A stretch of DNA of 64,000 nucleotides, taken from Candidatus Aenigmatarchaeota archaeon (GTDB taxonomy: Archaea > Aenigmatarchaeota > Aenigmatarchaeia > CG10238-14 > SCSR01). Positions 3,745 through 15,628 of the stretch are shown in pieces. Location of the stretch: contig JAWCSL010000001.1 in assembly GCA_039090665.1 (NCBI GenBank), positions 32,001 through 96,000 of the forward strand. Direction: 5' to 3'. Under the pieces are notes generated by a model. It was not told the DNA's origin and ran no database searches. It saw only the letters and a list, made by a program, of their open reading frames with translations. Made by a program: the position numbers and the translations under genes. The stretch's first letter is position 1. Each line of letters starts with the position of its first letter.

Positions 3745-3851
3745 GCTGGCGTGGATTAGCCTGGCTAAATCGCGGCGCTCATAGCATCTATGAGCTTTGA
3801 TAAAGGATGAAAGAAACGCCGAGATCGCGGGTTCAAATCCCGCCGCCAGCA
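3745..3851 (+). tRNA. tRNA-Met(CAT), elongator type, with 32-nt intron at 37/38 (3784-3815)
   Basis: Acceptor GCTGGCG/CGCCAGC, anticodon stem CGGCG/CGCCG, CAT at 3780-3782, T-loop GTTCAAATC; G1-C72 rather than initiator A1-U72; splice motif is relaxed, not a strict BHB. Confidence 0.9.
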
Positions 3852-6704: not shown

Positions 6705-7603
6705 ACTGAGTTATATTATTTATTTGCTCATGGGTCTTGGCGTTGGGCTTTTGATCAAGTCAAACAAGACATGAGATGAAATAGCCTATTCTGACTCATG
6801 AGATATTGGCCTGAAGTGAAAGAGCTTCAGGTAGGTTGATTGGTGAAACCTAGAGGTAGGGCCCGCCAATTCTGGTTGATCCCGCCAGAGGCCACTGCTA
6901 TCCGGCTTCGACTAAGCCATGCGAGTCGAGAGGGGAAAGCCCTCGGCGCACTGCTCCGTAATACACAGTCAACCTACCCTTAGCTGGGGGATAATCCCGG
7001 GAAACTGGGGCTAATACCCCATAGGTGCTAGGTACTGGAAGGTCCTAGCGCCGAAAGCTCCGGCGGCTAAGGATGGGACTGTGGCCTATCAGCTTGTTGT
7101 GGAGGTAAAGGCTCCACAAGGCGATAACGGGTACGGGCTATGGAAGTAGGAGCCCGGAGATGGACTCTGAGACATGAGTCCAGGTACTACGGTACGCAGC
7201 AGGCGCGAAAACTTCTCAATGCTCGCAAGAGCGAAGAGGGAAGCCGGAGTGCCCTTGCTCTGCAAGGGCTTTTGCGGTCTGAAAACGGGACCGCGAATAA
7301 GGGGTGGGTAAGACGGGTGCCAGCCGCCGCGGTAATACCCGCGCCCCGAGTGGTGGCCACGATTATTGGGCCTAAAGCGTCCGTAGCCGGTCTGGTAAGT
7401 CCTCAGTGAAATCCTCTAGCAAACTAGAGGGCTTGCTGGGGATACTGCCAGACTTGAGACTGGGAGGGGGCAGGGGTACTCCCAGGGTAGGGGTGAAATC
7501 CTGTAATCCTGGGGGGACCACCTGTGGCGAAGGCGCCTGCCTGGAACAGGTCTGACGGTGAGGGACGAAAGCTAGGGGAGCGATCGGGATTAGATACCCC
7601 GGT

Positions 7604-7682
7604 ACACGAGGTTGGGTATCTTCTGATTTAAAGATGAAGAAAAATCCCAACTCAAGCTAGGATTTCCTAACTCGTGCGGGAA
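7604..7682 (+). ncRNA. 16S BHB intron 1 (79 nt, after ~U801), D'/C' guide-like
   Basis: CCCG/CGGG helix, GTA and AAA bulges; removal restores CCCCGGTAGTCC. Confidence 0.92.
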
Positions 7683-8082
7683 AGTCCTAGCCGTAAACGA
7701 TGCCCGCTTGGTGTTGCAAGCTTCTCGGGAGCTTGCAGTGCCGAAGCGTAGGTGTTAAGCGGGCCGCCTGGGGAGTACGCCCGCAAGGGTGAAACTTAAG
7801 GGAATTGGCGGGGGAGCACACAAGGGGTGGGCGTTGCGGTTCAATTGGATTCAACGCCGGAAATCTTACCAGGGCCGACGGCAGGATGAAGGTCAGTCTG
7901 AAGGGCTTACCAGACGAGCCGAGAGGTGGTGCATGGCCATCGTCAGCTCGTACCGTGAGGCGTGCGCTTAAGTGCGTTAACGAGCGAGACCCACACCCCA
8001 TGTTGCTAACTGCTTCTCCGGAAGCAGTGCACTCATGGGGGACCGCTGGCGATAAGCCAGAGGAAGGAGTGGGCGACGGTAG

Positions 8083-8170
8083 ACAGGTAAAAGGCTCAAG
8101 ACCGATTCATGTGAAAAAAAGATGAGCATGAATATCGCCCAGAGCCGTACATGTCTTTTACCTGACCGAA
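8083..8170 (+). ncRNA. 16S BHB intron 2 (88 nt, after ~1197), H/ACA-like fold
   Basis: CGGT/ACCG helix, AGA and AAG bulges; removal restores GACGGTAGGTCCGTATG. Confidence 0.92.
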
Positions 8171-8451
8171 GTCCGTATGCCCCGAATGCCCTGGGCCACA
8201 CGCGACGCACAATGCGCGCCACAATGGGATGCGACCCCGAAAGGGGAAGCAAAGCCCCTAAAAGCGCGCTCAGTTCGGATCGAGGGCTGTAACTCGTCCT
8301 CGTGAAGCTGGAATCCCTAGTAAGCGAACGTCATCATCGTTCGCTGAATACGTCCCTGCTCCTTGCACACACTGCCCGTCAAGCCAATCGAGCGGAACTC
8401 CATCGAGGCTTGCGATGAGCAAGTCGAGTTGGAGTTCTGTGAGAGGGGCTA

Positions 8452-8557
8452 ATCTTGGGGGTCCAGAAAAAAATAATATGAAAGAATTGGCTTGACTCTG
8501 ATGTGATGATGAGATGGAGGTGAGTTGATTGCTTGTATGGACCTCCCAAGAGCCTAA
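8452..8557 (+). ncRNA. 16S BHB intron 3 (106 nt, between A1492 and A1493) containing a four-box C/D sRNA
   Basis: GGGC/GCCT helix, TAA and AAA bulges; removal restores GGGGCTAAGTCG. Confidence 0.92.
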
Positions 8558-8832
8558 AGTCGCCACAAGGTAGCCGTACGGGAACGTGCGGCTGGATCAC
8601 CTCCTTACGTGCAACCCTACCTCAGGCACCATAAACAACCCTACCTGAAAGAATTTTCCTTTTTATCAGTACCAAAGTAAAAAAAATTAAGCTCGAATCT
8701 TTACCATTATCCTCAAATTTTTCAATTCTTTTCTTAAACTGTTTTCAAAAAGCTTGTGTTAACTAAAAACTAAAATAAATGAGAGAAAAATAGCTACCGA
8801 GCTTATAAAATAATAAAAATTGGGAAACCATT

Positions 8833-10851
8833 TCAAGCAAGAATAGCATATCTAGCGATCAAAGAAGCAAAGACAGAAGCTGTTAAAGACATGACTGTTA
8901 TCATTGTGTTCAAACTTGGTCCTGCTGTGTCCTTGAAAGGATCACCAACAGTATCACCAACAACAGCAGCCTTATGAGCTTCTGAACCTTTTCCACCAAA
9001 AGCCCCTTCTTCTATCAGCTTCTTAGCATTGTCCCAAGCTCCACCAGAATTTGCCATGAAAAGAGCAAAAATTATTCCTGTGATTATACTTCCTGCTAAA
9101 AAGCCCGCTAAAGCCTCTTTTCCCAAAATGAAGCCAACAAGCAAAGGTGCAGCTATAGCAAGCAAACAAGGAAGCATAAGCTCTCTTAAAGCACCTTTAG
9201 TTGCTATGTCCACGCATTTGGCATAATCAGGTTTAGCTTTTCCTTTCATCAATCCAGGAATTTCTTTAAATTGCCTTCTCACTTCTTCTATCATACGAAA
9301 AGCATTTCTCCCTACTGCCAAAATCAATAAAGCCGAAATCACAGGAGGCATCATGCTACCAATAAAAGTCCCAACTATAACCTTAGGCTCCATCAAGTTT
9401 ATTGAAAACAAACCAGTAGTCAAATCTTTCCTTATTTCAACAACTTCAGCGTAAGCCCCAAGCAAAGCCAAAACTGTTAAAGCTGCAGCACCAATCGCGA
9501 AACCTTTTGTTATTGCTTTTGTTGTATTTCCCAAAGCATCAAGTCTGTCTGTAATTTCCAAGACTTTGCCTTTCAAACCAGCTTGTTCCGCTATTCCTTT
9601 TGCATTATCGACAATTGGACCATAAGCATCAGAAGAAATTATCATTCCAACTATTGCTAACATACCCACTGCTGCTATAGCCACACCATAAAGATTACTT
9701 ACACCGAAAGCCCCTGCAAGATGCCAAGCTGCAAGCATTGCTACACAAATTCCGATGATTGAAGGTACAATGCTCAAGATTCCATAAGAAAAGCCTGAGA
9801 GGATGTTGATAGCAGCTCCTGTTTTTGCAGCTTCTGCTGTTTTTTTCACAGGAGCTTTATCGATTGATGTATAGTAGTTTGTTGTTATTCCTATAATCAT
9901 GCCAGATATAAGTCCAGCTAAAGTTGGTAAGAGAACACCAAAAGTTTGGTTTCCAAGTTCAAGAGCTTGAATCACAAAAAATGTTAAAATTGCAAAAATA
10001 AAACAAGTGGAAAAGGTTCCAACATTCAACGCAAGATTAGGGTTCTTTTTCTTGGCCAAATTGACGAAAATTAAACCAAGAAGAGAGGAAAAAATCCCAG
10101 CAGCTGCTATCAACAAAGGCAAGAAGATAAAGCTTGGAGCAATTGCTTTCCCAATTATCATGGCAGCTATGATGCTTGCTATGTAAGAATCTATCAAGTC
10201 AGCACCCATTCCTGCAACATCACCCACATTATCACCCACATTATCAGCAATAACAGCAGGATTTCTTGGGTCATCTTCAGGAATTTCCATTTCCACTTTT
10301 CCCACCAAATCAGCTCCAATATCTGCTGTTTTAGTGTAAATGCCACCACCAGCTTTTGCAAACAAAGCCAAAGCACTTGCACCAAAGCTGAAACCCAAAA
10401 CAATCTCAGGATCTTGGTAAATTTGGTATAAAATGCTTATGCCAAGCAAAGCTATGCCAACTATCATTAAACCCATGATGGCCCCACCATAAAAACCAAC
10501 AGAAAAAGCTTTTGCTAATCCTTTTCTTGCTGCATTTGTAACCCTAACATTTGTTTTAACTGCTGCCAGCATTCCAAAGTAGCTTGCTATAGCAGTGGAA
10601 AAAGAGCCAAGCAAGTAGGCTAGAGCTATGTCTGGGCTTAAGAAGAGAAAAATAAGAGTTGTCATGATGACAACGAAAATTGCCAAATAAAGATTTTGCC
10701 TCTTCAAGTAAGCTTTTGCTCCCACTTTTATCGCTTCAGAAATTTCTTCCATTTTTTTGGTTCCCGGGCTTTGTTTGCTCACATGGAAATACAAGTAACA
10801 AGCTGTGAAGATCGAAGCTAAGCCTGCGATTGTTGGGATTGAAGCAAACAT
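8833..10851 (-). CDS. hppA: Membrane-bound pyrophosphatase, probably K+-independent H+-PPase
   Basis: [35 protein letters not shown]; Lys in GNTTKA. Confidence 0.95.
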
Positions 10852-10908
10852 GAAATCACGATATATAAAAATTTTGTTCGATGATAACTTAAATTTTAAA
10901 CCATAAGA

Positions 10909-11320
10909 TTAAGTTAAGTAGTGCCTACATATTTCTAAAACTTTCCTACATTTTTCACACAAAAAATTCTCTATCCTTAAGTTAGAAGGATTGATTGACC
11001 AAAGATATTCGACCAACTCTTCGACCTTACTATAAGGATACATTAAACACTTGTATTTGTAATCTGGCTCATAATGATGAGTCAATCCGAATTTATTTTC
11101 AGCTATTTCATGTAAAAACCCGCAACTCAAAAATCTCTTCTTGATTTCTAAATATTGATTTGAAATAAAGAAAGTAGATAAATAAATTGACAAATAACTT
11201 TCTTTATCGATTTCTAATATGTTAGAAGCTGCCCAGCTCTTAAGGCCTCTCTCAAGAAAGTGATACGGAACTTCAGATCCTTCTGTGTAAAAGAATGGGC
11301 CGTAAAGTAATAATTTTCAT
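10909..11320 (-). pseudogene. Hypothetical protein (HEIAE/Cys motifs) with apparent frameshift just after the start
   Basis: Frame of the 94-aa ORF stays open upstream to ~11313; ATG at 11320 is out of frame by one A in an A-run. Confidence 0.4.
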
Positions 11321-11347
11321 TCCACACTATTAAGTTATTCTTTTTAT

Positions 11348-11593
11348 TTATGAAAGGTAAAACCAAGTCGAAAATCTCATTAAATTACAGGAGTGTTGAT
11401 CTTCATAAGTTTCTTTTGCCAATTTCAGTATTTTTTCTTTTGAATCTAATCCATATTTTCTAAGGATTTTCCAATTTTCTTCAGTTAGATTTCCAATTGA
11501 ACTTTCTGTAAGCTGAAGAAAAATTTTCTTTCCTTCTTCAGTTTCTTTGCAATTATCGGAAATTCTAATTTCCAATTGGAAAATTATTTTCAA
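11348..11593 (-). CDS. Hypothetical or fragmentary protein
   Basis: ORF with protein-like composition only. Confidence 0.25.
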   Translation of the reverse strand: MKIIFQLEIRISDNCKETEEGKKIFLQLTESSIGNLTEENWKILRKYGLDSKEKILKLAKETYEDQHSCNLMRFSTWFYLS

Positions 11594-11786
11594 GAAGAGT
11601 TTTCTTCAAAATATCTTCTAGTTCTCCATTTCTTTTTTCCACTAATATATCAAACCTTCTCATATTTTATCTGTAATATTTCTTCTGTCAAATCATTTTT
11701 TTCAAAAAATCTATTTAGAGTAAGAAATTTTAAAAAATATAAAGAATTTAGTTTAAGTTCACAATTATTTAATACCAGCTCAAAAC

Positions 11787-11858
11787 GGGCCGGTAGATCA
11801 ATGGTAGATCGCCTCGCTTGCAACGAGGAGGCTCCGGGTTCAAATCCCGGCCGGTCCA
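11787..11858 (+). tRNA. tRNA-Ala(TGC)
   Basis: GGGCCGG/CCGGTCC with G3-U70, anticodon arm CCTCG-CTTGCAA-CGAGG. Confidence 0.97.
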
Positions 11859-11892
11859 TCAATGAAATTTTATTAAATTTAAATTCGAAATC

Positions 11893-11900
11893 TTTATAAA
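11893..11900 (+). promoter_or_regulatory. Probable TATA box of 23S rRNA gene
   Basis: TTTATAAA about 25 nt before structured leader (from ~11924). Confidence 0.6.
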
Positions 11901-11972
11901 TACAAAATACAACTTATTTATTTGCCGGTGTCAGTATGTCTGCTTAATTCGAGCATCGGCTTTCTTTATTTT

Positions 11973-12037
11973 AGCGATGAGCTTTGTCTTTCTCTGCTGA
12001 CAAAAAAGATGAAGATGTGGACACCTTGTGAGCAAGC
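11973..12037 (+). ncRNA. Putative box C/D sRNA A in 23S leader
   Basis: ATGAGCT-guide-CTGA-linker-ATGAAGA-guide-GTGA spacing; guides match 23S only with G-U pairs. Confidence 0.55.
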
Positions 12038-12080
12038 TGCATGCAACTCCTTATTGAAAGAATAAGGGGTGAAGAGTGGA

Positions 12081-12141
12081 GGTTGATGATAACATTTATT
12101 CGCCTGAAAAAAGATGAAGAGCGAACTGTCTATTTGAAACC
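12081..12141 (+). ncRNA. Box C/D sRNA B in 23S leader
   Basis: GGTT/AACC terminal stem, TGATGA, CTGA, ATGAAGA, TTGA; 8-bp guide to 16S 7293-7300 and 10-bp guide to 23S 15193-15202. Confidence 0.8.
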
Positions 12142-14181
12142 ATAAGATGACACTACCACAGGATCAAGGAGGTCACTAAGGCCTAACAAGCTGACCCCAC
12201 TTGGTGGATAGCTTGGCTTCGGAGCCGAAGAAGTACGTGGCAAGCTGCGATAAGCCTGGGGTAGCCGCATGCAGGCGTAGATCCCAGGATCTATGAATGC
12301 GAATCGCTGGCTTCGGCCAACTCCGAAAGGAGGGGGAACGCGCTGAATTGAAGCATCTTAGTAGGCGCAGGAAAAGAAATCAAATTGAGATGCCGTTAGT
12401 AGGGGCGACCGAAAGCGGCAGAGGGCAAACCGAACTGGTTGGCGAAGAGCCAAACAGGATGTGGAGTTGTAGGACCTGTGTCCTTCCTATCCTAGCCGAC
12501 CTGAAGTCTGCTGGAAAGCAGCGCCAAAGAGGGTGATAGCCCCGTAAGGGAAGGCTAGGAGGAAGATGGCAGGTATCCTGAGTACCATTTCCTGGATGGG
12601 AAGTGGGAAGCTGGGTGAATTAACATCCAACCCTAAATACTCCCGAAGTCCGATAGCGAACTAGTATGGTGACAGAAAGCTGAAAAGCACCGCGAAAGCG
12701 GGGTGAAAAGAGCTTGAAACCAAGTGGGGATAGTCAGACACGGCCCGGAAGGTGCTCCTTCGAATGAAATCCGAAAGGAGAGTAAGAGAAGGAGCTTACA
12801 GGGTCGTGTCGTCCGTGCGGAAACACGGGGCAGGGAGTTTGTCTCAGTGGTGAGGTTAACTTGCTTTCACAAGGTAGCCGGAGCGAAAGCGATTAGCCCG
12901 CAACTGTTCTTTATGGACAGTGAGGGGCAGGGTATGAAAGTGCCTGAAATCACTGGGACAAGACCCGAAGCCAGGCGATCTAACCCTGGGTAAGGCGAAG
13001 TCCCTCGAAAGGGGGATGGAAGCCTGCTACCGGTGCTGAGTTACAAATCGCTCGGGTGACCTGGGGTTAGTGGTGAAAAGCCTAACGAGCCTGGCGATAG
13101 CTGGTTCCTCCCCAAATGCACGTCAGTGCAGCCTGGTCGGAGGTAGGCAATGGGGTAGAGCTACTGATTGGAAGGTCAAGGACCGAAAGGTTCAGCCTTC
13201 CTGTCAAACTCCGAATCCATTGCCACCTGAGAAGACCGGAGTGAGGGTGCTGGGGTAAGCTCGGCACTCGAAAGGGGAACAACCCAGCCTAGGGTTAAGG
13301 TCCCTAAATGCTAGCTAAACGCTGAAGGGTGTCTGAACCCTCAGACAGTAGGGCTGTAGGCTTAGAAGCAGCCATCAGATAATAAGTGCGTAACAGCTTA
13401 CCTACCGAGGGTTCGGGCCCCGAAAATGGAAGGGACTAAGCTAGCTACCGATACCCTAGACCGCGAAAGCGGGGGTAGGGAGGCGTCCTGCATGGGCAGA
13501 AGCCTCTGCGTGAGCAGGGGTGGACCGTGCAGGATTGAAGATCCTGCCGAAAGTAACAGCAAAGTTAGGTGAGAATCCTAACCACCTGAAGCCTAAGGGT
13601 TTGCCAGCAATGTTGGTCAGCTGGCAGTTAGCCGGTCCTAAGGGTGCTCTTAACCGAAGCACTCGAAAGGGAAAGCCGTTAATATTCGGCTGCCATGGGG
13701 ATACGTGCGGCGACGCAAGCCAGTTTTCCGACGCTTCGGGATAGGCAGACGCAAGCTAACTGCCGAAGTGAGCGGAGTCTCTTAATGAGGAGAAGCTCAT
13801 GAAGGCAGGAATGGCTCCTCGTATGAGGAGTTCTGCTGATTCCTGGAGCCCGTGAAAAGGAAAACTGGAAGGATTCCCCATGACCGTACCGAGAACCGAC
13901 ACAGGTAGGCTTGCCGAGAAGGCAAAGGTGTGTTGGGAGAACCCAGCCTAGGGAAATCGGCAAGTTGGCCCCGTATCTTCGGTAGAAGGGGTGCCTGTTC
14001 TCTCGCAAGGGAGAGCAGGTCGCAGTGACAAGGGGGAAGCGACTGTTTAACAAAAACGCTGGAGACCGCAAGTCCGAAAGGATGTGTACGGTCTCTGATG
14101 CCTGCCCAGTGCCGGTGTGTGAAAGCCCGGTTCAACGGGAAGAAGCCCCGGCAAACGGCGGCGGTAACTCTGACCGTCGTA

Positions 14182-14231
14182 ACTCAAGGCGGTCATTTGA
14201 TTTAATGATATTCCGCTGCCTTGGGCGGCAT
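14182..14231 (+). ncRNA. 23S BHB intron 1 (50 nt, after ~A1927), D'/C' guide-like
   Basis: GTCG/CGGC helix, TAA and ATA bulges. Confidence 0.88.
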
Positions 14232-14360
14232 AAGTAGCGTAATCCCTTGCCGTTTAAATGACGGCCCGTCTGAACGGCTTAACGACTTCCCCACTGTCCT
14301 GGGCTGGGACCCAGTGAACTCGCCTTTCCGGTGAATAGGCCGGAGACCTCCTGTGGGAAA

Positions 14361-14391
<31 letters not shown>

Positions 14392-14545
14392 GTGTTGTGG
14401 TAAGGTTGTGACTGCATAGAGTAGGTAGGACTCGCTATTAGGCTGAGGCTTCGGCCGAAAGCTGAGAGGAAAGTGTAACACTACCCTTTCGCAACCTTAC
14501 CGCTAACTCGAAAGAGGACAGCACCAGATGGGCAGTTCGGCTGGG

Positions 14546-14631
14546 AGTCTAGAAGTCTAAATGAGGAGTCCCTTAAGTTATGATTTTTTATGATTAAGGG
14601 CATACGAACCGAAAGGCTTCTAGACCAGCAA
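14546..14631 (+). ncRNA. 23S BHB intron 2 (86 nt, P-loop, after ~G2252) containing a four-box C/D sRNA
   Basis: GCTG/CAGC helix, GGA and AAG bulges; removal restores GCTGGGGCGG. Confidence 0.93.
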
Positions 14632-14686
14632 GCGGTACGCCCTCGGTAAAGGATCGAGGGCGCCCAAAGGTCAGCTCATCCGGGTC

Positions 14687-14775
14687 ATGGTAGAGTCTAG
14701 TAAATGATTGGACCGTTCCAGAATGATCTTAATGATTTCTGAGGTAGCTGATGAGAATAGGCTCTACCACCCGCA
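14687..14775 (+). ncRNA. 23S BHB intron 3 (89 nt, after ~C2306) containing a four-box C/D sRNA
   Basis: CGGG/CCCG helix, TCA and CAA bulges; removal restores CGGGTCAGAAATCC. Confidence 0.92.
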
Positions 14776-14919
14776 AGAAATCCGGAGTAGAGTGTAAGCG
14801 CAAAAGCTGGCCTGACTGGATTCCGCAAAGCGAGGAATCCAGCCGCGAAAGCGTGGGCTAGCGATACTTCGGTTCCTCTTAATGGGGGCCGGAGGTATCA
14901 GAAAAGCTACCTCGGGGAT

Positions 14920-14973
14920 AAACTAGCTAGGGCTGATTAAATTATTTTTCTTCATATCTAGCTAGTTCCCTAA
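14920..14973 (+). ncRNA. 23S BHB intron 4 (54 nt, after ~U2449)
   Basis: GGGG/CCCT helix, ATA and AAA bulges, AACTAGCTAG/CTAGCTAGTT stem. Confidence 0.88.
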
Positions 14974-15001
14974 AATGGGCCCGTGGCCGGCGAAAGCCCA
15001 C

Positions 15002-15072
15002 TGCTCGAAGGGGTTTTTCGTCCCAAAGATAGCGAGCCTCGGGTTCTGAACTCGAGCCCTTCGCGCGGGTAA
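15002..15072 (+). ncRNA. 23S BHB intron 5 (71 nt, after ~2477)
   Basis: GCCC/GGGT helix, ACT and AAA bulges; removal restores AGCCCACATTGACCC. Confidence 0.9.
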
Positions 15073-15628
15073 ATTGACCCGGCGCGTTGGTGCGTCGATG
15101 TTGGCTCCCCCTCTCCTGGCCGTGCAGCAGCGGCCAAGGGTACAGGTGCCCACTGGTTAAAAGGGGACGCTAGCTGAGTTCAGAACGTCGTGAGACAGTT
15201 CGGTCGCTATCTACAGGAGGTGCTGGTCGTCTGACCGGAAGGAAGGGTTAGTACGAAAGGAACACCCTTCCGTGGCCTCTGGTCTACCGGTTGTCCATTT
15301 GGCATCGCCGGGCAGCCAAGCCATACGTGGATAAGAGCTGAATGCATCTAAGCTCGAAACCACCCGGAAAAATAGACGACCACTCTTGCTACTGGTGCGC
15401 AAGCATCGGTGGCAAGACGAAGGCCCCTGTAGACTACAGGTTTGATAGGGGAGAGGTGTAAGCCTCAAGCTTTCGAGCGAGAGGCGAGCCTGCTCCTACT
15501 AAAAGCCTGAGTTGTTAGGCCTTGATAAGCTCCTTGATCCTGTGGTAGTGTGAAAAAATTCTGATTCTCCCAAAAATATATACTAGAGTAGAGAAAACTT
15601 ATTTAATTGTCACTACATAGTAGTTATT

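Follow-up and report, generated by a model that had tools for sequence, protein, structure and literature searches.

A putative box C/D guide RNA of the sR13 family in a 16S rRNA intron at the decoding site of an Aenigmatarchaeota archaeon

The 16S rRNA gene and its decoding-site insert

The window, i.e. the whole stretch of 64,000 nucleotides analysed here, comes from the genome of a Candidatus Aenigmatarchaeota archaeon (DPANN), a tiny hot-spring archaeon (genome of 620,606 bases or 0.62 Mb in 15 contigs, 90.6% complete). Its presence in hot-spring samples is shown by four DNA runs (X1-X4). A 16S rRNA gene was found on its forward strand at 6869-8605, as revealed by the Rfam model RF01959 (1297 bits). 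The match was 1737 nt long as compared to 1478 positions of the model, and it contained three inserts. The gene was single-copy in the assembly, the stretch 8180-8451 matching the genome once. The 23S rRNA gene was placed by Rfam at 12179-15522, and the 16S-23S spacer (8606-12178) is about 3.5 kb long, with a tRNA at 11787-11858 inside it.

One of the three inserts, 106 nt in length (8452-8557, forward strand), was left unaligned by Rfam in the 3' strand of helix 44 (h44), directly 5' of AAGUCG. Relatives without the intron show GGGGCTAAGTCG at the insertion point, and removal of the 106 nt restored exactly this sequence, with three equivalent placements of the insert (8451-8556, 8452-8557 and 8453-8558). 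We take the insertion point to be A1492/A1493 (±1) in E. coli numbering. DNA contigs of two other studies covered 8424-8575 with zero differences; since these contigs span the intron, it is not an assembly artefact. The insert occurred as one copy in the whole genome. Three congeneric genomes retained a copy of the intron at the identical 16S site, and 11 of 37 16S 3' ends of relatives were without the guide-bearing insert.

The two other inserts of the gene are also short (about 7604-7683 and about 8083-8169). The former has a D'/C'-like CTGA...GATGAAGA motif at 7623 and, ahead of it, GGGTATCT, the complement of the adjoining exon sequence AGATACCC. The latter contains TCGCCCA, complementary to the exon immediately upstream. 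Neither gave a C/D match in a permissive Rfam scan, and boxes C and D could not be clearly made out in them.

The MFE fold of 8436-8572 (z = -3.1) placed the ends of the 106-nt insert in a motif resembling the bulge-helix-bulge (BHB) of archaeal introns. An outer helix pairs 8439-8442 (GUGA) with 8560-8563, and a central 4-bp helix pairs the exon strand GGGC at 8446-8449 with the intron 3' strand GCCU at 8552-8555. The 5' splice site is predicted within a 3-nt bulge (UAA, 8450-8452) and the 3' splice site within the unpaired AAAG at 8556-8559, which faces GAG. The latter is a 4-nt/3-nt internal loop and thus the relaxed form of a BHB rather than a clean 3-nt bulge. Within the intron, 8453-8465 pairs with 8538-8551 to form an inner helix. 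The consensus fold of ten introns of relatives (site A) had the same layout, with the central helix paired in 10/10 of them; six pairs were altered on both sides, and the five of these that lie in the inner helix are compensatory changes. Cleavage at a BHB takes place inside the bulges, and by this rule the splicing endonuclease EndA would be inferred to cut within the two unpaired stretches. Profile searches showed that EndA (94.8 bits; G000:C12:23832-24110) as well as the RNA ligase RtcB (547 bits) are encoded in the genome. From six RNA runs, each with at most 0.21 of the sampled words, two were aligned; they covered conserved exon parts only and yielded no joined reads, and none covered 8404-8543.

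Boxes, guides and targets of the intron sRNA

The initial annotation had described a complete dual-guide box C/D sRNA within the intron at A1492/A1493, and every element that it listed was found exactly where it had been placed. Box C, AUGAAAG, lies at 8478-8484. It is followed by a spacer of 13 nt (8485-8497) carrying the 11-nt D' guide ATTGGCTTGAC (8486-8496), by box D' (CUGA, 8498-8501), and, after a D'-C' loop of 4 nt, by box C' (AUGAUGA, 8506-8512). The second spacer (8513-8524) is 12 nt long and carries the D guide GGAGGTGA (8516-8523; in RNA, GGAGGUGA), and box D, UUGA, closes the unit at 8525-8528. All of these are on the forward strand. For box C', GTGATGA at 8503-8509 had been proposed; that sequence is indeed present, but the overlapping ATGATGA at 8506-8512 makes the better box, and we prefer it because it stands exactly 12 nt from TTGA and is conserved in relatives (38/52 copies).

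Comparison was made in an alignment of 52 distinct copies obtained after removal of duplicates, 51 from Aenigmatarchaeota and one from Nanoarchaeum equitans. The boxes and both guides run invariant throughout this alignment, and the boxes, the 12/13-nt spacers and the two guides of the intron sRNA are all conserved in it, which bears out the initial description. The RUGA of box C was kept in 52/52 copies. Box D' was CTGA in 49/52 copies and CCGA in 3/52, and the D'-C' loop measured 3-4 nt in 43/52. The C-D' spacer was 12 nt in 40/52 copies, 13 nt in 11/52 and 14 nt in 1/52. TTGA stood 12 nt 3' of box C' in 39/52 copies; in 2 copies it came one base later, CTGA or GTGA was found there in two more, and 7 copies had TTAA or TTTA at the box D position. 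Boxes C and D of the intron sRNA are non-canonical. The family norm is AUGAnAA for box C and UUGA for box D, and the pair AUGAAAG/UUGA departs from RUGAUGA/CUGA by replacing the G6-C1 pair with A6-U1, the tandem G·A positions being kept. Across the 52 copies this C6-D1 pair was A-U in 46, G-C in 1 (N. equitans) and C-G in 1 (L040). A terminal stem beside the boxes, seen by eye in many relatives, is absent from this copy. The Rfam C/D family sR18 (Pyrococcus) gave a sub-threshold match over 8474-8530 when 481 bases were searched, with E 0.003 and 24 bits where the gathering score is 45. Fibrillarin (289.8 bits), Nop5 (Nop, 215.3 bits) and L7Ae (62.4 bits) are all encoded in the genome, with scores above the Pfam cut-offs. 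The L7Ae match (G000:C11:28733-29011) contains one in-frame TGA.

The leader between the tRNA at 11787-11858 and the 23S gene holds two candidate box C/D sRNAs, at 11973-12040 and 12086-12137, with Rfam C/D matches that remained sub-threshold (18.6 and 23.3 bits). The candidate at 12086-12137 reads AUGAUAA, 11 nt, CUGA, GAUGAAGA, 12 nt, UUGA, and it has an 8-bp match to 16S at 7293-7300 and a 10-bp match to 23S at 15193-15202. Its boxes, AUGAUAA ... UUGA, were counted in favour of the box variants of the intron sRNA.

Read as its reverse complement, the D' guide matches 8378-8388 exactly; this stretch lies in the 5' strand of h44 (16S 1405-1415). The D guide is in the same way the reverse complement of the anti-Shine-Dalgarno end at 8597-8604, which we take to be 16S 1532-1539 in E. 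coli numbering. Both targets are on the forward strand. By the fifth-nucleotide rule, which fixes the methylated position (as given in the consulted part of PMC5389701), the 11-bp pairing predicts 2'-O-methylation at 8381 (A1408) and the 8-bp pairing at 8600 (C1535). The D' 11-mer had 2 occurrences in the 64-kb window, namely guide and target, as against 0.02 expected, and 0/100 shuffles reached 2. With GGAGGTGA, 3 matches were found in the window as against 0.92 expected and 4/100 shuffles reached 3, and this match is by itself weak evidence.

Covariation in relatives, which the initial annotation had suggested looking for, was found for the D' guide. Among the 36 genomes in which both the D' guide and its 16S target were readable, with pairs counted by hand, the pair at 16S 1410 was G-C in 29, G·U in 4 and A-U in 3, with no mismatch; all three genomes with A1410 carry U in the guide. 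At 1414 the pair was A-U in 7, U-A in 4 and G-C in 1, with 24 mismatches, so that pairing past nine base pairs is optional. In the genus studied here, guide pairing reaches 11 bp, more than most relatives have, and the guide follows the target at 1414-1415. The D guide and the anti-Shine-Dalgarno end are invariant and pair over only 8 bp, and therefore give no covariation signal either way. Box spacing puts the predicted D site at 1534 in N. equitans, at 1535 in the present copy and at 1536 in copies with a TTAA box. As the predicted site drifts among lineages, exact methylation there may matter less than the pairing.

Relatives of the sRNA and their host introns

When 60 relatives were searched with 8300-8610, 43 were matched, and the core of the insert was matched outside 16S as well. 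Scanning 185,579 species genomes for the pattern gave 86 stretches. The compact matches came from Candidatus Aenigmatarchaeota MAGs, one N. equitans and one short contig binned as Hadarchaeum; the remaining stretches were loose bacterial matches with long gaps and no boxes. The N. equitans match is NeqsR13, as checked against supplement file 1 of PMC4644070.

NeqsR13 and the intron sRNA are alike in several respects. Both are dual-guide C/D RNAs with the D' guide on 16S 1405-1415 (Am1408) and the D guide on the anti-Shine-Dalgarno end, their whole cores can be aligned, and RsmA/Dim1 is missing in the host. They differ in that NeqsR13, in the sections of Dennis et al. 2015 (PMC4644070) that describe it, is encoded by a stand-alone gene in an intergenic region, its boxes being near-canonical (AUGAUGU ... 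CUGA) and its D site A1534, whereas the present sRNA lies inside a 16S intron, has AUGAAAG/UUGA boxes and a predicted D site at C1535. Judged by sequence, the intron sRNA is a homologue of sR13 of Nanoarchaeum equitans, and hence a member of a guide family with known targets. In N. equitans 16S, MALDI-MS and RiboMeth-seq located Am1408, Am1409 and Am1534 and the sites were methylated stoichiometrically, the D' guide of NeqsR13 being assigned to 1408 and its D guide to 1534 (Seistrup et al. 2017, PMC5389701, in the portion consulted). The targets predicted by the initial annotation, about 1408 and about 1535, thus gain comparative support, the mapped Am1408 and Am1534 belonging to the homologue (same portion of PMC5389701). 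Ignicoccus hospitalis sR56 is likewise reported to direct 2'-O-methylation of 16S 1408 with its D' guide; it differs in having its second guide at U1380 and in the presence of RsmA, and no intron host is stated for it in the accessible text (PMC5389701).

The distribution of the family was determined with a model, R1, built from the 52 distinct copies. In the order, 78 of 117 genomes were positive, including 29 of the 34 high-quality ones. A total of 80 copies were found, one per genome in nearly all cases, two in two genomes, and one in the genome studied here. All 80 are intron-borne: 36, one of them cut by a contig end, lie in the anticodon-loop intron of tRNA-Ser(UGA), and 44 lie in four 16S sites between nt ~1492 and ~1525. 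The 5'-strand site of h45 hosts 21 of the latter, and one further cut copy lies either there or at the next site. The site near 1500 hosts 11, the 1492/1493 site 10 and the 3'-strand site of h45 a single one. The four rRNA host sites are all situated between the two guide targets. No copy was found elsewhere in 16S or in 23S among the 80, despite the two further introns in the present 16S gene.

tRNA hosts occurred in all five families with matches, and rRNA hosts in two families and as one second copy in a third. Three different rRNA sites occurred within one genus (G085, G086 and G012), two of them on contigs of 215 kb and 786 kb and the third at a coordinate above 158 kb; as these contigs are long, the site differences are not all binning errors, although mis-binning may affect some short rRNA contigs. 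When introns were allowed, ARAGORN called tRNA-Ser(UGA) at 6/7, 14/16 and 2/5 of the loci tested, as compared to 0/7 host tRNAs detected under default settings. Its miscalls were at loci with a second intron or truncated at a contig end, and the other tRNA contexts were assigned from the T-arm motif only. For the tRNA-hosted copies of family f4 no convincing box C could be placed. Other orders of the class gave weaker R1 matches, many of which span only the C-to-C' half of the model. Out of 14 such loci, one (on an 875-kb contig) is at 1492/1493 and one in h45; most of the remaining ones have flanks like those of a tRNA-Ser intron, ARAGORN confirming Ser(UGA) in only 3.

No clear tRNA-Ser(UGA) was found in the assembly of the genome studied here. 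An intron-free tRNA-Ser(UGA) that had been considered for it (ARAGORN call C3:12564-12650) was dropped, as the call is not a credible tRNA-Ser and the search had cross-matched other tRNAs. In this genome the host tRNA has its closest relative at G000:C4:13014-13108, which reads Ser(CGA) and has an 11-nt intron. An intron-bearing tRNA at 3745-3851 of the window has an intron of about 32 nt with ATGAGCT...TTGA...GGATGAAAG, which looks C/D-like at first sight.

Further introns were seen at the ~1500 site of related 16S genes. In L025 (G024:C1) an intron of about 640 nt with an ORF, which may be a homing-endonuclease intron, follows AAGTCGCCAC at this site, and the guide intron lies separately in h45. 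Four 16S genes of family f5 (L026, L027, L034 and L049) have a second small intron there with AATGATGAT and a hairpin, which may be another kink-turn or C/D element.

Proposed role and competing explanations

We consider it very probable that the 106-nt insert is an archaeal intron of the bulge-helix-bulge type whose cargo is a functional sR13-family box C/D sRNA. Removal of the intron would be needed to rebuild the decoding-site adenines A1492/A1493; after cleavage by EndA, RtcB would ligate the exons and would probably circularise the intron. L7Ae would bind the C/D kink-turn and the D'/C' K-loop, and Nop5-fibrillarin would then methylate the 2'-O of A1408 and C1535. The decoding site would be blocked for as long as the intron splits the 3' strand of h44 while its 5' strand and the anti-Shine-Dalgarno end are engaged by the guide. 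Such a block may delay folding of the 3' minor domain, in the way proposed for NeqsR13 in the consulted part of Seistrup et al. (PMC5389701). Guide and rRNA would be made one-for-one, so that the guide could act on its own precursor or in trans.

RsmA/KsgA/Dim1 is a near-universal enzyme, and it has earlier been reported missing in Nanoarchaeota. In HMM searches, which were run on incomplete MAGs, it was not found in 40/40 genomes of the order, the present one included, and was detected in 14/14 controls. PF00398 gave partial matches only in the 40 genomes, with at most 37 bits and over the SAM-binding part, and the best PF00398 match of the present genome is a GCD14-type tRNA methyltransferase. 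With TIGR00755 the best score was 23.9 bits against a cut-off of 171. By these profile searches, the absence of RsmA/Dim1 would fit the idea that the sRNA serves as a checkpoint. N. equitans is also without RsmA/Dim1, and NeqsR13 has been proposed to stand in for that checkpoint (PMC5389701, in the portion consulted).

That proposal has its equal here in an explanation that overlaps with the preferred one, namely that the RNA serves chiefly as an antisense chaperone or checkpoint replacing the RsmA/Dim1 step, with methylation being secondary. The failure to detect RsmA/Dim1 in 40/40 genomes, the persistence of D-guide pairing while its site drifts over 1534-1536 and the location of every rRNA host site between both targets would agree with it, as would the precedent set by NeqsR13. 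On the other hand, a methylating RNP needs just such strict 12-nt spacers and intact D'/C' boxes, the N. equitans sites are methylated stoichiometrically (in the part of PMC5389701 consulted), and the absence of RsmA itself derives from HMM searches of incomplete MAGs. We regard this explanation as possible, with the odds somewhat against it. More doubtful still is a wider scenario in which a mobile intron carries the sR13 guide as cargo. The intron would have moved repeatedly from the anticodon loop of tRNA-Ser(UGA) to 16S and among 16S sites, always landing in the 35-nt stretch bracketed by its guides, with the site chosen by pairing of the excised intron with rRNA (through reverse splicing or template switching). 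It would then act as a built-in, one-per-molecule checkpoint in which the decoding site and the anti-Shine-Dalgarno end are unavailable until methylation and splicing are done, thereby replacing the RsmA/Dim1 step.

Two further explanations would deny the sRNA a present function or its identity. The copy in this genome could be a decaying, non-functional relic, given that its C and D boxes are non-canonical, its first spacer is 13 nt instead of 12 nt and its terminal stem is absent. We hold this to be very unlikely: the AUGAnAA and UUGA variants are the norm of the family, the perfect 11-mer guide is longer than that of most relatives and tracks its target at 1414-1415 in the genus, the copy is the sole one in the genome, and the identical site is kept in three congeneric genomes. 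The complementary stretches could also be part of a splicing structure, or GGAGGTGA could be the left-over Shine-Dalgarno of a lost homing-endonuclease gene, as had been raised in the initial annotation itself as a point against the guide. GGAGGTGA is not significant on its own, an ATG lies downstream at 8537, and the ORF-bearing intron of L025 lies nearby in a related 16S. This explanation is nevertheless almost certainly wrong, since both stretches together with the boxes recur in 36 tRNA-Ser introns, which do not have 16S in cis and are too small to hold an ORF, and both are present in the stand-alone N. equitans gene too. The splicing helices, moreover, are formed by other parts of the intron. 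In particular, the GGAGGTGA guide is kept in tRNA introns of 58-70 nt that are devoid of an ORF, and the relic Shine-Dalgarno thus falls away.

Guide RNAs encoded in introns are characteristic of eukaryotes, where box C/D snoRNAs that guide rRNA methylation are, as is proposed here, processed from an intron of the host gene. Those introns are spliceosomal, lie in protein-coding or non-coding hosts and release the snoRNA by debranching and exonucleases, not by EndA; to our knowledge they never lie in rRNA itself. In euryarchaea, the guide in the pre-tRNA-Trp intron is freed by the tRNA-splicing endonuclease and targets C34 and U39 of that tRNA. This system (Haloferax volcanii; Pyrococcus sR50) resembles the present one in that the body of a BHB intron is a guide modifying its host RNA (PMC7994747, in the portion consulted). 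There the host is a tRNA, whereas here 16S rRNA is host as well as target; in relatives the host is tRNA-Ser(UGA), yet the D' target is still 16S. We know of no Thermoproteales 16S intron at 1492/1493. The 16S introns of Thermoproteales are similar in being short or ORF-bearing, in occupying conserved sites and in being removed through a bulge-helix-bulge, but guide-RNA cargo is not mentioned for them in the accessible text of PMC4496867. A 2021 review, in its consulted part, cites only the tRNA-Trp intron case for archaea (PMC7994747), and our literature search, which did not extend to most subscription journals, found no description of a C/D sRNA lying within an rRNA intron. The guide and its targets are known; by these searches, novelty lies in the rRNA-intron host and in the moves between introns.

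If the preferred reading holds, i.e. a BHB-type intron with a working sR13-family sRNA, the decoding centre of an rRNA gene would be split by an intron that itself carries the guide for modification of the opposite strand. It would also be an example of an intron retained because its cargo is needed, and a testable case of RNA-based control of late 30S maturation without RsmA/Dim1. The five different intron hosts among close relatives may serve as a natural system for how archaeal BHB introns move. On the practical side, regions near the 16S 3' end that are used for universal primers and probes are interrupted in these DPANN archaea.

Apart from the introns, this part of the 16S gene differs from the archaeal consensus at positions which we presume to be ~1400 and ~1498-1499. 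At 8373 of the window U stands in place of C (the Rfam alignment reads CACUGCCCGUCA), and at 8563-8564 CC stands in place of UA (the Rfam alignment reads AAGUCGCCACAAGG). In relatives, positions 1498-1499 are CC, UC or CA.
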